Shown in pieces: positions 42,090 to 49,144 of a stretch of DNA of 64,000 nt. This DNA is from Alphaproteobacteria bacterium (GTDB lineage: Bacteria > Pseudomonadota > Alphaproteobacteria > UBA8366 > JADFVY01): positions 14,303 through 78,302 of the forward strand of contig JBFIFO010000001.1 of assembly GCA_041602815.1 (NCBI GenBank). The letters run 5' to 3'. The position numbers were made by a program, and so were the translations under genes. Within the stretch, counting starts at the first letter, position 1. The number at the start of each line of letters is the position of its first letter. The notes below the pieces were generated by a model. That model searched no databases and was not told the origin of the DNA. It worked only from the letters and a program-made list of their open reading frames with translations.

Positions 42090-42210
42090 TGCATCGCGCC
42101 TGTCATATAATCGTTGGCGTTCCGGCGCATTGGACCCATATTAATCGGTGGAGCCTGAGCCGGGGGGGCGCGGGCACCCAAACAAACAGCCAAGAATTTC
42201 GGGGCGAAAA

Positions 42211-42474
42211 ATGTCGACAGAAAAGAGCCAGAACGTACAGGACGTGTTCTTGAACCATGTCCGGAAGAACAAGCTGCCGGTTACCGTCTTCCTTGTGAAC
42301 GGTGTCAAGCTTCAGGGGATTATCACGTGGTTCGATAATTTCTCGGTGTTGTTGCGGCGGGATGCGCATTCGCAGCTTGTGTACAAACATGCAATTTCGA
42401 CGGTGATGCCTGCGCAGCCGATTCAGTTGTTCGAGGCGGATCGGACCGAGGCTGAAGCCGTTCCGGCGGGCTGA
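42211..42474 (+). CDS. hfq: RNA chaperone Hfq
   Basis: The Sm1/Sm2 motifs are [40 protein letters not shown] and YKHAISTV. The start is trimmed to the ATG at 42211. Confidence 0.97.
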
Positions 42475-44687: not shown

Positions 44688-45557
44688 ATGACCAAGGTTG
44701 CCTTCATCGGCCTTGGCGTCATGGGATATCACATGGCCGGACATCTGAAGTCCGGCGGACATGACGTCACCGTTTACACCCGCACCACCGAAAAGGCCGC
44801 GGCCTGGGTCAAGGACCATGGTGGTGCGATGGCCACGACTCCGCGCGAGGCTGCGGCCGGTGCGGAGATCGTGTTTTCCTGCGTTGGCAATGACGATGAC
44901 TTGCGAAACGTCACACTCGGTGATGACGGCATCTTTGCCGGAATGGGTGAGGGCACGATCATGGTCGACAACACGACGGCCTCCGCGAACGTCGCGCGTG
45001 AGCTCTATGGGATCGCCAGGGACCAGGGCGTTGGGTTCATCGACGCGCCCGTGTCCGGCGGAGAGGCCGGCGCCCAGAACGGCGTGCTCACCGTCATGTG
45101 CGGCGGGGACCAGGACGTCTTCGATCGTGCGCAGCCGGTGATCGATTGCTATGCGCGCGCGGTGACGCTCTTGGGTCCGGCCGGATCCGGGCAACTGACC
45201 AAGATGGTCAATCAGATCTGCATCGCCGGGCTCGTGCAAGGCCTGTCGGAGGGGATGAATTTCGGGATGCGCGCCGGTCTCGATATGGAAAAGGTCATCG
45301 ACGTCATCTCCAAGGGGGCGGCCCAGTCGTGGCAGATGGACAACCGGGCCCGCACCATGTGCCGGGGCGAGTTCGAGTTCGGCTTCGCGGTCGATTGGAT
45401 GCGCAAGGATCTCGGCATCTGCCTAGGGGAAGCGAACACCAACGGGGCGCGGCTCCCGGTCACCGCCCTGGTCGACCAGTTCTACGCCCAGGTCCAGGCC
45501 CGTGGCGGTCGTCGCTGGGATACGTCGAGCCTGATGCATCTCCTGGTCAACGAGTGA
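44688..45557 (+). CDS. NAD(P)-dependent 3-hydroxyisobutyrate dehydrogenase family oxidoreductase
   Basis: It has the Rossmann motif FIGLGVMG and a 6-PGDH-like C-terminal domain. A GGAGGA Shine-Dalgarno sequence lies upstream. Confidence 0.85.
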   Translation: MTKVAFIGLGVMGYHMAGHLKSGGHDVTVYTRTTEKAAAWVKDHGGAMATTPREAAAGAEIVFSCVGNDDDLRNVTLGDDGIFAGMGEGTIMVDNTTASANVARELYGIARDQGVGFIDAPVSGGEAGAQNGVLTVMCGGDQDVFDRAQPVIDCYARAVTLLGPAGSGQLTKMVNQICIAGLVQGLSEGMNFGMRAGLDMEKVIDVISKGAAQSWQMDNRARTMCRGEFEFGFAVDWMRKDLGICLGEANTNGARLPVTALVDQFYAQVQARGGRRWDTSSLMHLLVNE

Positions 45558-45575
45558 CGCGCGGCCGGCGATTCT

Positions 45576-46394
45576 CTATTTCTCCGACCGGCCGGACTCG
45601 GGTGCCCGCTTCACTTCATTCCAGAGCCTGTCCAGCTCGCCGATATCGACATCCTGCGGCTGCCGGCCCTGCTCGTTGAGGTGCGTCTCGACGCGGCGGA
45701 ACCTGTCCTCGAACTTGCGGTTTGCGCGACGGATCGCCGCCTCCGGCTCGATCGACAGGTGCCGGGCGAGATTTGCGACGGCAAACAACAAGTCACCAAG
45801 CTCGTCTTCCAGGCGGTCCGCCGCCCCTGCGCCGTCGATTTCCGAGCGCAATTCCGCTGTTTCCTCGTCGATCTTGGCCAACACACCGGAAATGTCGGGC
45901 CAGTCGAACCCGACGCGGGCGGCCCGCCTTGCAAGCTTGACAGCCCGCGTCAGGCCGGGTAGGGCGATCGATACGCCGTCAAGGACACTCGGCTCACGGC
46001 CTTCGGCACGCGCCGTAACCAGGCGTTCGGCAGCCTTCTGCTCCTCCCAGGCGGCGGTCTGCTCAACCGCGGACTCGACGGTTTCGTCGCCGAATACGTG
46101 CGGATGGCGACGGACCATCTTGTCCGAGATGCCCTGTGCGACGGCATCGAAGTCGAAGTGTCCATCCTCCTGCGCCATGCGGGCGTGGAAGACGACCTGC
46201 AACAGAAGATCGCCCAGTTCGTCCTTCAGCGCGGCCATATCGTGGCGGTCGATCGCCTCGGCGACCTCGTAGGCCTCTTCGATGGTATAGGGTGCGATGG
46301 TTGCGAAATCCTGCTCCAGATCCCACGGGCAACCACCCTCCGGGTCCCGCAGCCGGGCCATCACCGTCAGCAGCCGGTCGAGTTGCGCACTCAT
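45576..46394 (-). CDS. mazG: Nucleoside triphosphate pyrophosphohydrolase MazG
   Basis: It has tandem MazG domains (EEAYEVAEAI...ELGDLLLQ and EETAELRSEI...ELGDLLFA). Confidence 0.93.
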   Translation of the reverse strand: MSAQLDRLLTVMARLRDPEGGCPWDLEQDFATIAPYTIEEAYEVAEAIDRHDMAALKDELGDLLLQVVFHARMAQEDGHFDFDAVAQGISDKMVRRHPHVFGDETVESAVEQTAAWEEQKAAERLVTARAEGREPSVLDGVSIALPGLTRAVKLARRAARVGFDWPDISGVLAKIDEETAELRSEIDGAGAADRLEDELGDLLFAVANLARHLSIEPEAAIRRANRKFEDRFRRVETHLNEQGRQPQDVDIGELDRLWNEVKRAPESGRSEK

Positions 46395-46501
46395 GATCGG
46401 GTCGTCTCAGCCTTCAGTTGTCGGACCGAAGGCAGACTAACGCGCATTGCCGTGCAGCGAAAAGAAAACCGCTGCACCGGCGGACGAACGATGGCATAGT
46501 A

Positions 46502-46517
46502 TATCTACTAGTAGATA
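46502..46517. promoter_or_regulatory. Perfect 16-bp palindrome (TATCTACTAGTAGATA); candidate operator overlapping a candidate promoter
   Basis: Read directly from the sequence. It sits inside ATGGCA(46491-46496)-17 bp-GATAAT(46514-46519), about 45 nt upstream of the small ORF that starts at 46564. Confidence 0.5.
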
Positions 46518-46563
46518 ATGCGTGTCCTGGTCCAGGAACGGCATGAGCCCACGGGAGTTTCGT

Positions 46564-46827
46564 ATGGCGACGACAGCAGCTCAGCGACGCTGGCGGGACA
46601 AGAACCGCTTCGTCAAGACTCAGCTGAACATCATGGCACGCCGGATTGTCCACGACGACTTGGCCGAGACGGCCCGCGTCTTCAAGCTGCGCGGAAAAGG
46701 GGAGGCCGTGGCGTTCTCTTCGTTCGCGACCAAGGGGTTGATGCAGTATGCCGTGCACAACGACGAAGCCCGTCGATTGCTGGAGTTGTTCGTCAAGTCC
46801 TGGTACCGCGACCGCGATCTCTATTGA
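46564..46827 (+). CDS. Small hypothetical protein, possibly ribbon-helix-helix-like
   Basis: The ORF track gives 46522..46827. I prefer the ATG at 46564, which is preceded by GGGAG at a 6-nt spacing. The 87-aa product (MATTAAQRRWRDKNRFVKTQLNIMARRIVHDDLAETARVF...) belongs to no family I recognise. The strand-helix-helix pattern is an inference. Confidence 0.5.
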   Translation: MATTAAQRRWRDKNRFVKTQLNIMARRIVHDDLAETARVFKLRGKGEAVAFSSFATKGLMQYAVHNDEARRLLELFVKSWYRDRDLY

Positions 46828-46932
46828 TGAAGGCGCGCCGCGACGTATGCCCGTCGCCAACAAATCAGGCCCACGTCAACAGGACGTTAACGGTTTACCG
46901 GATAGATTGAGGCTACCGAATCCATCCAGAAC

Positions 46933-47265
46933 TTGCTGGAGATGAGCAGGATGGCACGTGGAGCCTCTTACAATCTCGACGAACTGATTTGGAAGAACCG
47001 CGGCGAAGGCCGCAACACCGGATGTCCGCGACTCGCCGGCCTCATTCGCGATGCGCGCGAACAGGCCGGGATGAGCCTCGAGGATCTCGCCGACAACATG
47101 GGCGTCGACCCCAACCGCCTCAGCGTCTGGGAAACCGGCACCGAAGGCATGGGTCGCGCCGATGTCGAAGCCTTTCGCTCGGTGTTCCCCGATATCGATC
47201 TGTCGATGGTGCGCTACCGTCCGACGCCGCATCACGGTGAGATCGCGCATATACCGCCCGACTGA
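46933..47265 (+). CDS. XRE-family helix-turn-helix transcriptional regulator
   Basis: It has the HTH core LIRDAREQAGMSLEDLADNMGVDPNRLSVWETG. The real start may be the ATG at 46942 or 46951. It is followed by a strong terminator. Confidence 0.72.
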   Translation: MLEMSRMARGASYNLDELIWKNRGEGRNTGCPRLAGLIRDAREQAGMSLEDLADNMGVDPNRLSVWETGTEGMGRADVEAFRSVFPDIDLSMVRYRPTPHHGEIAHIPPD

Positions 47266-47290
47266 GCCGGTTTCGCCACAGGTGTTCCTG

Positions 47291-47324
47291 GGCCGCGTTC
47301 CGAAACTGCGGGCGCGGCCTTTTT
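47291..47324 (+). terminator. Rho-independent terminator
   Basis: The GC-rich stem GGCCGCG...CGCGGCC is extendable by G-U pairs and is followed by TTTTT (47320-47324). It lies 26 nt after the XRE gene stop. Confidence 0.65.
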
Positions 47325-47551
47325 GCCGTAGCGTCCAACATTGTGTCGGACGGGGGGCGGGCTGTTCGGCACCGTCGCTGGGTCCGCAAATTGCGACGGC
47401 ACGCGTCAGTCCCTGGTGATTGCCTAAACAAAGTGTTTCCACGAACTCTTCGTAATCATTGAGAAATTAGAATTCGTAACCGATCATCATAAAGTCGCAT
47501 AATGTATATTATGGAAAATAAAGTGCACGATGCGGCGATGGTCCGGGGCGC

Positions 47552-48325
47552 TCAGACCTCGATGGTAAGGCCGTCATGTGCCGGTCTGACATGTCCCGGC
47601 AGTTCCTCACAGAGCGCTGCGTAGTCGAGCGTGTGGCTCATATGCGAAAGCCAGGCTCGTGTCGGCCCGACCCGTTCGATCCATTCAAGCACCTTATCGA
47701 CATGCGCGTGGGTCGGGTGCGGTGCGCGGCCGAGACACCCGACGATCCAGTTGTCCACACCATAAAGGCGCTCGAACGCTGGCTCGTCGAGCGCGACCAC
47801 GTCGACGGAATACGCAAACCCCTCGACACGCAGGCCCATGGTTGTACTGAAACCATGATCCTGGCGAAACGGGCGGATTTCGAGTTCGCCGATGCGAAAG
47901 CTACCGTCGCCGACGGGTCTCGGGTCGAGGCAGGGCTTGTAGAAGTGGCCGCGCGCTTTGTGATCGAGTGGCGCGAAGACATACCCGAACCGGGTGTTGA
48001 TCTGTTCCAGCGTCACGTCATACGCATACATCGGGATCGCCGCCCCCATGGCGACGTTAACCCAGCGCAGATCATCGATTCCATGGATGTGATCCGCATG
48101 GGCGTGGGTGAAGATAACAGCGTCGAGGTGGGCAGTTCCCGCGTCGAGCAGTTGGGCTCGGCAGTCCGGAGACGCATCCACGAGTATGGTGGCGCCCTTC
48201 CCTTCGATTAGGATGGAGGACCGGCGTCGCCGGTTTCGCGGTTCCGACCGGTCGCAGTCGCCCCAGTTGTCCCCGATCAGCGGCACGCCACCCGAGGCAC
48301 CGCAGCCGAGCACGGTGATCTTCAC
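47552..48325 (-). CDS. MBL-fold metallo-hydrolase (PhnP/GPMBL-like)
   Basis: It has the THAHADHIHG motif and sits in the conserved position downstream of tatD. Confidence 0.85.
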   Translation of the reverse strand: MKITVLGCGASGGVPLIGDNWGDCDRSEPRNRRRRSSILIEGKGATILVDASPDCRAQLLDAGTAHLDAVIFTHAHADHIHGIDDLRWVNVAMGAAIPMYAYDVTLEQINTRFGYVFAPLDHKARGHFYKPCLDPRPVGDGSFRIGELEIRPFRQDHGFSTTMGLRVEGFAYSVDVVALDEPAFERLYGVDNWIVGCLGRAPHPTHAHVDKVLEWIERVGPTRAWLSHMSHTLDYAALCEELPGHVRPAHDGLTIEV

Positions 48326-48337
48326 AGCATTTCTCCT

Positions 48338-49144
48338 TCAGTCCGGCCCAGCGCCCGCACCGGGTCGGGACGCCTTGCGGAACAGGCGGAAGAAATTGTC
48401 GCTGGTCACCCGCGCCAGTTCAGCAGGATCGATCCCCTGAAGGCCGGCAACCGCAGCGCCGGTATGGGCGACAAAGGCCGGCTCGTTGCGTTTGCCACGG
48501 TTCGGAACAGGTGCAAGGTACGGCGCATCGGTTTCGATCAGCAGGCGGTCGAGGGGAAGCGCGCGGACGGTTTCGCGCAAATGGTTCGCCGCCTTGAAGG
48601 TTACGATCCCGGAAAGCGAAATATAGAACCCTATTTCCAATGTTTTTTCAGCAAGATATCGAGATGTACTAAAGCAATGGATTACGCCGGGGAACACGCC
48701 CTTTCCATACTCCTCGGCCAAGATCGCCACGGTATCCTCGTCGGCGTCCCGTGTGTGAACGATAAGCGGCAGCCCGGTGTGGCGCGCCGCCGCAATGTGT
48801 GCGCGGAAGCTTGATATCTGAGCCTCGCGCGTGCTGTGCTCGTAGTAATAGTCGAGCCCGGTCTCGCCGATCCCGACCACCAGCGGGTCGGCTGCCAGTT
48901 CAATCAACCGTTCGGACGTGGCAGCGGGTCCCTCCCCGTCCGCCTCGTGCGGATGGACGCCCACCGAACACCACACGCCGTCGAACCGCGCTGCGATGGC
49001 GCGCACCTGTTCGAACCGGCTGAGATGGGTGCAGATCGTCACCATCGTGCCAACCCCGGCATCGCGGGCGCGGGCGACCACGCCCTGCAGGTCGTCGGCG
49101 AAGGTCGGAAAATCGAGGTGACAGTGGCTGTCGACGAGAAACAT
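48338..49144 (-). CDS. tatD: TatD-family metal-dependent hydrolase
   Basis: It starts at MFLVDSHCHLDF, trimmed from 49309. TatD motifs run throughout. Confidence 0.9.
   Translation of the reverse strand: MFLVDSHCHLDFPTFADDLQGVVARARDAGVGTMVTICTHLSRFEQVRAIAARFDGVWCSVGVHPHEADGEGPAATSERLIELAADPLVVGIGETGLDYYYEHSTREAQISSFRAHIAAARHTGLPLIVHTRDADEDTVAILAEEYGKGVFPGVIHCFSTSRYLAEKTLEIGFYISLSGIVTFKAANHLRETVRALPLDRLLIETDAPYLAPVPNRGKRNEPAFVAHTGAAVAGLQGIDPAELARVTSDNFFRLFRKASRPGAGAGPD

Follow-up and report, generated by a model that had tools for sequence, protein, structure and literature searches.

We analysed a stretch of 64,000 nucleotides from an alphaproteobacterium (assembly GCA_041602815.1, contig JBFIFO010000001.1, positions 14,303 to 78,302; hereafter the window), and in particular the interval between mazG and an MBL-fold hydrolase gene (mbl). 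This interval holds a perfect 16-bp palindrome, a small basic gene (ORF1) and a second small gene encoding an XRE-family regulator (ORF2). The genes of the window run in the order ntrY-ntrX-trkA-aminotransferase-HAD-small hfq-sized gene-hflX-impase-hibadh-mazG(-)-ORF1-XRE-mbl(-)-tatD(-)-metG(-). The small gene was named hfq from the cluster representative in related loci and an 82-83% tblastn match (ORF 42148-42474 against related contigs), not from Pfam. An Rfam scan of 45500-48500 returned no credible match. A preliminary description of the interval had read both small genes, together with the palindrome, as a self-contained and probably acquired regulator cassette. The features discussed below are listed in Table 1.

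Table 1. Features of the mazG-mbl interval and the genes that bound it (window coordinates).
Feature	Position	Strand	Basis or detail
mazG, NTP pyrophosphohydrolase, divergent from ORF1	45576-46394	-	Pfam MazG 1.6e-41
Promoter-like ATGGCA-17-GATAAT; palindrome covers spacer and -10	46491-46519	+	Consensus scan
Perfect 16-bp palindrome TATCTACTAGTAGATA, putative operator	46502-46517	.	Core TCTACTAGTAGA at 46504-46515
Shine-Dalgarno GGGAG of ORF1	46552-46556	+	Sequence, 7 nt ahead of ATG
ORF1, 87-aa basic protein of an undescribed family	46564-46827	+	MAT..QRRWR.KNRFVKTQLNVMARRLVHDDL...RGKGEAV...RDRDLY
Direct repeat ACGTCAAC-N3-ACGTTAAC, then TAGATT (46903-46908)	46873-46891	+	Candidate XRE promoter/operator
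ORF2, XRE-family HTH regulator, 104 aa, lineage-specific	46951-47265	+	HTH_31, HTH_3
Intrinsic terminator of the XRE transcript, hairpin + T5	47291-47324	+	Fold result
Predicted chromosomal dif AAGTCGCATAATGTATATTATGGAAAAT (XerC/XerD dimer-resolution site)	47492-47519	+	22/28 vs E. coli dif
MBL-fold hydrolase (mbl), last gene of the converging metG-tatD-mbl operon	47552-48325	-	Pfam Lactamase_B_2

ORF1 was surveyed in one genome per GTDB species, and the best 80 of at least 123 ORF1-bearing species were compared in detail as loci of 12 kb each (L001-L080), every one centred on ORF1. All 80 are Rhodospirillales-like alphaproteobacteria, among them Caenispirillum, Defluviicoccus, Magnetospira and Magnetovibrio. 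The 262 homologues are 50-98% identical, and nearly all are 88 aa long and begin with MAT. In the window, the GGGAG and the open reading frame lie where the preliminary description had placed them, the ATG at 46564 opening 87 codons that end at 46827. That description had named the lack of a coding signature in relatives as something that would refute its reading. The signature is present, with divergence of 0.29, 0.22 and 0.53 at codon positions 1, 2 and 3, and ORF1 is a real gene evolving as coding sequence. Its N-terminal segment is near-invariant (M-A-T-x-x-x-Q-x-x-W-R-x-K-N-R-x-x-K-x-Q-L-N-V-M), with residues Q7, W10, R11, K13, N14, R15, K18, Q20, L21, N22 and M24 invariant or almost so, and the net charge summed over residues 1-27 is about +7.

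Consistent with the earlier statement that ORF1 belongs to no named family, the protein had no significant match in Pfam, NCBIfam, PHROGs or PADLOC, its profile gave 0 matches to PDB sequences at E <= 10, and Foldseek of its structural model against PDB and viral models returned nothing. Searched against 1.84e9 representative proteins, the profile recovered 44 clusters only, all of them the ORF1 family or its fragments; a match to a 3594-aa protein (P0201) was discarded as a low-complexity repeat artefact. The AlphaFold2 monomer model, built from 113 family members, has a pLDDT of 89 (75-81 across residues 1-30) and consists of helices at residues 4-39, 45-62 and 67-83, with no strand. The ribbon-helix-helix (RHH) fold proposed in the preliminary description found no support in this all-helical model or in profile comparisons: a Pfam scan of all 113 members (E <= 10) yielded scattered noise and no RHH model, and an hhalign comparison with Arc, which chose the register of Arc Q9-F-N11, was not significant (P = 0.12). 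As the RHH fold is an intertwined dimer, the monomer model is a weak test of it. The residue pattern would fit an RHH protein, and we treat this as a lead, not a result. ORF1 represents an undescribed family found order-wide; the protein is small, helical and strongly basic and, on the reading favoured below, plausibly a nucleic-acid-binding stress protein.

The perfect palindrome upstream of ORF1, reported in the preliminary description, was read again in the sequence and is more than a chance occurrence. It ends at 16 bp, since positions 46501 and 46518 are both A, and its core is present in a single copy within the window. In 63 of the 80 species, the 420 bp ahead of ORF1 contain the 12-bp core TCTACTAGTAGA, as a rule at 10-70 bp from the ATG and occasionally in two to four copies. 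The information content is 2 bits at all 12 core positions, centre included, and near zero past the A/T-rich positions +/-7 to +/-9; the A/T-rich bases immediately beside the palindrome are conserved in relatives, and position +/-6 is invariably T/A at ORF1 sites. The 12-bp element before ORF1 is among the most strictly conserved that one is likely to meet. In the other 17 species, which represent several independent lineages, the upstream site is gone and ORF1 is unchanged; the site has decayed, for example, in L013-L016 and L080, and is missing in Defluviicoccus vanus. The promoter that had been proposed beneath the palindrome stood only in part: its hexamers are present in the window, but the -35 hexamer ATGGCA is not kept in relatives, and the consensus scan found two promoter-like sites in 1.4 kb where 0.6 are expected. 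Its conservation marks the palindrome as a genuine cis-element under selection, overlapping the predicted core promoter. Within the texts open to full-text search, no paper on the palindrome came up; 10-mer matches were mostly to synthetic-biology constructs and were judged irrelevant.

The spacing between site and gene is variable. In L132 (2332-2356), L155 and L157, exactly 6 nt separate the end of the 16-mer from the ORF1 ATG, so that TAGATA could be the -10 element of a leaderless transcript; this geometry suggests leaderless ORF1 transcripts in these species. A gap of only 6-12 nt is seen in several species (also L043, L078, L056, L060 and L065) and leaves no room for a Shine-Dalgarno sequence. 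In L031 (5860-5990) the palindrome region is tandemly multiplied before ORF1; the repeat units measure 34 and 24 bp, and of the four copies two are exact and two degenerate.

Palindrome copies also occur away from the ORF1 promoter. The centre of the window's palindrome is 116 bp from the mazG ATG, and in three loci where ORF1 lies elsewhere (L063, L073 and L077) a separate copy is found 111-120 bp upstream of mazG, as is likewise the case in metagenome contigs L093, L113, L188 and L191. We regard mazG as a probable second target of the palindrome. An extra copy follows hflX in L014. Other copies lie inside genes, at places where the protein reads (Y)LLV[DE] in GC-rich genomes. In five species (L018:9547, L020:9856, L021:11449, L024:5219 and L025:9064) the mbl residues LLVD are spelled with the rare codons CTA CTA GTA GA, and all five are without the ORF1 promoter site. 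The same rare codons spell LLVE in tatD of L009 (7829), and the palindrome is carried by YLLVD of glyA in L107 (1338) and L146 (1233). By a rough estimate, about 0.001 in-gene sites would be expected by chance in the DNA sampled, against three independent events in ORF1 loci (mbl twice, tatD once).

The genomic setting of ORF1 is that of a core gene. A block of the form hfq-hflX...mazG / mbl-tatD-metG houses ORF1 in all 80 species. Gene order is as in the window in L001-L010; L011-L040 have ORF1 between mazG and mbl, with varying inserted genes and no XRE gene; in L041-L080 it is flanked by hflX and the inositol-monophosphatase-family gene. Across the loci, no conserved partner gene was found downstream of ORF1. 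The search for co-occurrence of the two small genes that the preliminary description had called for showed that ORF1 mostly occurs without the XRE gene, which is confined to L001-L010.

That ORF2 encodes an XRE-type helix-turn-helix (HTH) protein, as first described, was corroborated by Pfam scores above cut-off (HTH_31, 5e-9 and 36.7 bits with a cut-off of 27; HTH_3, 6e-8 and 33.1 bits with a cut-off of 23) and by a helical Cro/C1-type fold. Homologues set its start at the ATG at 46951, giving 104 aa; the family comprises 48 clusters, all of 104 aa and 63-94% identical, and diverges by 0.15, 0.08 and 0.43 at codon positions 1, 2 and 3. The AlphaFold2 model shows the XRE core (helices 26-38, 43-50, 54-62 and 69-78) followed by a C-terminal beta-hairpin, and Foldseek matched it with probability 1.00 to HipB, C.Esp1396I, C.BclI and SinR (TM-score 0.64-0.81 on target). 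ORF2 shares the HTH_3/HTH_31 domain and the helical XRE fold with HipB, the restriction-modification (R-M) controller C proteins and SinR; unlike these, it has no toxin, R-M or phage partner, and its strongest conservation lies outside the HTH, in the first 27 residues and the YRPTPHHGE C-terminal beta-hairpin. The residues invariant outside the HTH are those of the N-terminal YNLDELIWKNRGEGRNTGCP and of the C-terminal hairpin YRPTPHHGEIAHI. This conservation suggests a conserved partner or ligand.

In the 10 species with the XRE gene, the sole conserved block of the ORF1-XRE spacer is the repeat ACGTCAAC-N3-ACGTTAAC with its TAGATT, which probably serves the XRE gene as a promoter and operator of its own. 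The terminator of the preliminary description folds as it was described: the z-score (-1.33) is weak if taken by itself, but compensating changes preserve the stem in relatives, where it is followed by a T-run, and a simple terminator scan missed it because of that scan's loop-length rule. The XRE gene is independent of ORF1 and was added later, between ORF1 and the dif site described below, with its own predicted promoter/operator repeat and terminator, and the unit of two genes proposed earlier dissolves into an order-wide ORF1 with its palindrome and an XRE gene found in the closest ~10 of the 80 species. The XRE protein was rejected as the binder of the palindrome, which is far older than the XRE gene.

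Downstream of the XRE terminator, the sequence AAGTCGCATAATGTATATTATGGAAAAT is identical at 22 of 28 positions, whole central region included, to E. coli dif, printed as GGTGCGCATAATGTATATTATGTTAAAT in PMC3025954; it differs in the outer arm bases (AAGT.. and ..GGAAAAT). In this AT-rich flank, a 24-bp block, TCGCATAATGTATATTATGGAAAA, is invariant among relatives whose surroundings cannot be aligned, and the 16-bp core of this block was found in 31 loci. The site was found in 44 of the 80 loci, always between ORF1/mazG and mbl and in constant orientation, and is single in the window at up to 3 mismatches. By its sequence, 47492-47519 is the dif of this chromosome. The cumulative GC skew reaches its maximum at 44-48 kb and the gene strands converge there, which places the replication terminus inside the window. 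Wherever dif was found, ORF1 is no more than about 5 kb away, and in L014, L025, L029, L030, L031 and L039 it is the gene directly beside dif; ORF1 is a terminus gene. The genes that flank dif here, mazG/ORF1 on one side and mbl-tatD-metG on the other, are conserved order-wide, which is unusual for a terminus region. The distance from palindrome to dif is about 120 bp in L093 and L116 and 293 bp in L077, and the copies inside mbl lie 0.75-2.6 kb from dif. In L011, L012 and L033, ORF1 and dif are present and the palindrome is absent from the locus.

The palindrome turned out not to be a signal private to this locus: elsewhere, a large TetR clade has operators of this type. The exact 16-mer was sampled in at least 120 metagenome contigs, 16 of which came from the ORF1/mazG neighbourhood. 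In 22 of 105 sampled contigs outside this neighbourhood, a gene of one and the same TetR subfamily lies no more than about 2 kb from the site. The subfamily combines TetR_N (PF00440) with TetR_C_13 (PF16925) and bears the JGI label 'repressor of nem operon'; its nearest NCBIfam model is AcuR, below cut-off. The TetR-linked sites neighbour SDR, DJ-1/PfpI, GST, FMN reductase, cupin and secreted repeat protein genes. Moreover, six TetR orthologues were fetched regardless of any palindrome (from Dongiaceae, Nitrospirillum, Pleomorphomonas, Hartmannibacter, a Rhizobiales metagenome-assembled genome and Bordetella), and in all six loci tacCTACTAGTAGgta stands 13-14 nt ahead of the tetR ATG, ahead of the following gene, or at both places. 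The palindrome beside the TetR genes of Bordetella, Rhizobiales and Nitrospirillum is a variant that differs at the outer base pair. With the exact 16-mer in 22 contigs and the core in six of six TetR loci, the ORF1 palindrome falls into this operator class, and a palindrome with the core CTACTAGTAG is tied to a large TetR clade over several phyla.

Cupriavidus and the cyanobacterium Xenococcus are among the organisms in which the exact 16-mer accompanies the TetR gene, so the DNA specificity is old and widespread; since these carriers are not Rhodospirillales, they do not help to decide which protein binds the ORF1 site. Twelve high-GC contigs extend for 1.5 kb or more on either side of the site, and in six of these no TetR gene is within reach. 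In four TetR loci (L201, L207, L208 and L210), tetR is followed by a conserved operon whose products are an uncharacterised protein of ~211 aa, a cytochrome b (Ni_hydr_CYTB) and a molybdopterin oxidoreductase (Oxidored_molyb); ahead of this operon stands a second palindrome. The resemblance of this operon to msrQ/msrP hints at an oxidant-responsive regulon.

Based on these data, we propose, at a little under an even chance, that the palindrome is a CTACTAGTAG-type operator of a NemR-like TetR protein encoded elsewhere, through which ORF1 and mazG are repressed. We infer that these genomes encode such a protein somewhere else in the chromosome. Its dimer would bind the palindrome and keep RNA polymerase off the promoter of ORF1, and probably off that of mazG as well, for as long as the repressor is not inactivated by an electrophile or oxidant; ORF1 would then be the regulated effector, not the regulator. 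The ORF1 site shares with NemR-like TetR operators its palindrome type, its overlap with the -10/start region and, in several species, its spacing to the ATG, the 6 nt that precede the ORF1 ATG in the three closest cases being comparable to the 13-14 nt that precede the tetR ATG. Sites without a nearby TetR gene are common elsewhere, and sites inside genes also occur there (as in glyA); no DNA-binding domain was detectable in ORF1 by profiles, model or Foldseek. The 17 losses of the site with ORF1 unchanged fit regulon turnover better than loss of self-control.

Several points weigh against a distant TetR repressor. Neither the window nor the 80 loci contain a TetR gene, and none lies near the ORF1 site in ~100 loci, a departure from NemR-like TetR systems, as is the fact that ORF1 is an orphan small protein and not a detoxification enzyme. 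An exact 12-mer in 63 of 80 species is unusually strict for the site of a distant regulator, and position +/-6, which never varies from T/A at ORF1 sites, flips between T and C among close TetR orthologues. ORF1, with its near-invariant basic N-terminus, is always the neighbour of the site. The appearance of a near-perfect copy inside mbl where the promoter site was lost, in two independent lineages, is not predicted by such a repressor. The E. coli NemR box, TAGACC..GGTCTA, is different from the ORF1 palindrome.

The main rival view, which we consider possible, if rather unlikely, is that ORF1 itself is the binder: a dimer or pair of dimers of ORF1 would bind TCTACTAGTAGA through the basic N-terminal segment and repress its own promoter and that of mazG. 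The segment would be either an RHH strand (K18-x-Q20-L-N22) or a protruding basic helix. The adjacency of site and gene across the order, the consistent lack of any other regulator gene next to them, the invariant residues from Q7 to M24 with their charge, and the twelve fixed core positions, centre included and stricter than among TetR orthologues, all agree with a binder encoded at the site, as do the copies that arose inside mbl where the promoter copy was lost. RHH proteins offer precedents in the omega repressor, whose targets are inverted 7-bp heptads, and in MatP, which binds a 13-bp palindrome. As with Arc, CopG and omega, the protein is small and basic and its gene directly follows a perfect palindrome that lies on the promoter of that gene, and the protein sequence runs from an alternating polar/hydrophobic, strand-like stretch through a helix and a G-x-G turn (G-K-G) to a second helix, the register picked by hhalign being that of the Arc strand Q9-F-N11. 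It differs from RHH autorepressors in its lack of any RHH or DNA-binding profile or fold match (Arc at P = 0.12), in the single predicted helix over residues 4-39 that takes the place of the strand, and in an extra C-terminal helix. Moreover, 17 of 80 species keep the protein unchanged with no upstream site, and, given the identical palindrome in the TetR clade, a binding ORF1 would require two unrelated families to have converged on one operator. In a variant of this view that we think improbable, ORF1 is a site-specific DNA-binding protein that marks or organises the dif region, like MatP/matS or ZapT, and the position of its site at a promoter is secondary. It would then found a new family of small site-specific DNA-binding proteins that reads TCTACTAGTAGA and marks the dif/terminus of Rhodospirillales, a proposition to which we give little credence; sites near dif would be kept even inside coding sequence by means of rare codons. 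The constant nearness of ORF1 to dif, its place directly beside dif in six loci, the short palindrome-dif distances in L077, L093 and L116, the rare-codon copies in mbl where promoter sites were lost, the copy in tatD of L009, and the lack of plasmid or phage copies of ORF1 speak for such a role. As every locus is centred on ORF1, nearness to dif is inseparable here from nearness to ORF1 or from plain synteny; the three loci with ORF1 and dif and no palindrome, the single site in the 64-kb window and the ordinary TetR regulation served by the same palindrome elsewhere speak against it. The sites of the ORF1 locus resemble matS in that some copies lie inside coding regions near the terminus, and differ from it in forming no array, with one site here and only 1-3 per 12 kb.

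The cassette of the preliminary description, a horizontally acquired pair (orphan antitoxins or the remnant of a prophage switch) with both proteins acting on the palindrome, is in our judgement very improbable. It draws on the tandem arrangement of two small genes on one strand with no terminator between them, on the lineage-specific XRE gene adjoining dif, a known entry point for Xer-dependent mobile elements, and on fold matches of the XRE protein that include HipB and R-M controller proteins. For ORF1 we regard it as already refuted by synteny. The preliminary description had itself allowed that the genes might be ordinary core genes if present at this position throughout the order, and ORF1 is found in the same block in every species compared; the age gap between ORF1 with its palindrome and the XRE gene spans the depth of the entire order, and upstream of the XRE gene lies a conserved repeat of its own. 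No homologue of either protein was found on plasmids or in phages (tblastn against 50,697 phage records). The absence of a toxin or enzyme partner, noted from the start, is confirmed (the neighbours are mazG, mbl and dif), and this mazG encodes a pyrophosphohydrolase and is not that of mazEF, so that the pair does not class as a toxin-antitoxin system; only sub-threshold matches to MqsA and HipB models were obtained. PADLOC gave nothing for ORF1 and only a weak match for the XRE protein (best E = 0.0011, HTH_VI). With no phage or integrase gene nearby and no significant PHROG match for ORF1, a prophage remnant likewise lost its footing. The AT-rich flanks on which an acquired origin had been based do exist (GC falls to 0.48 at 47400-47599), but the right flank is dif at the turning point of the GC skew and not foreign DNA. 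No second dif-like site appears in the alignment of the ORF1-XRE spacer.

Whichever protein binds the site, ORF1 stands as an orphan family, a small basic protein described in no database that is kept across an order-level clade and sits beside the dimer-resolution site, and the dif and replication terminus are now placed for a group of largely uncultured bacteria. If ORF1 is only a TetR-controlled stress protein, mazG and an effector of unknown function join an undescribed electrophile/oxidant regulon. If ORF1 binds the site, the alphaproteobacteria gain a new DNA-binding family, possibly with a terminus-marking protein in it, which, if true, would bear on terminus recognition outside enterobacteria.

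The slot between ORF1 and dif in L011-L040 is a hotspot of variable genes, which include those for gamma-glutamyltransferase and TPP-enzyme subunits. Such variation would be compatible with gene gain at dif, but no second dif-like site was seen. A gamma-glutamyltransferase gene also lies upstream of ORF1 in one clade.

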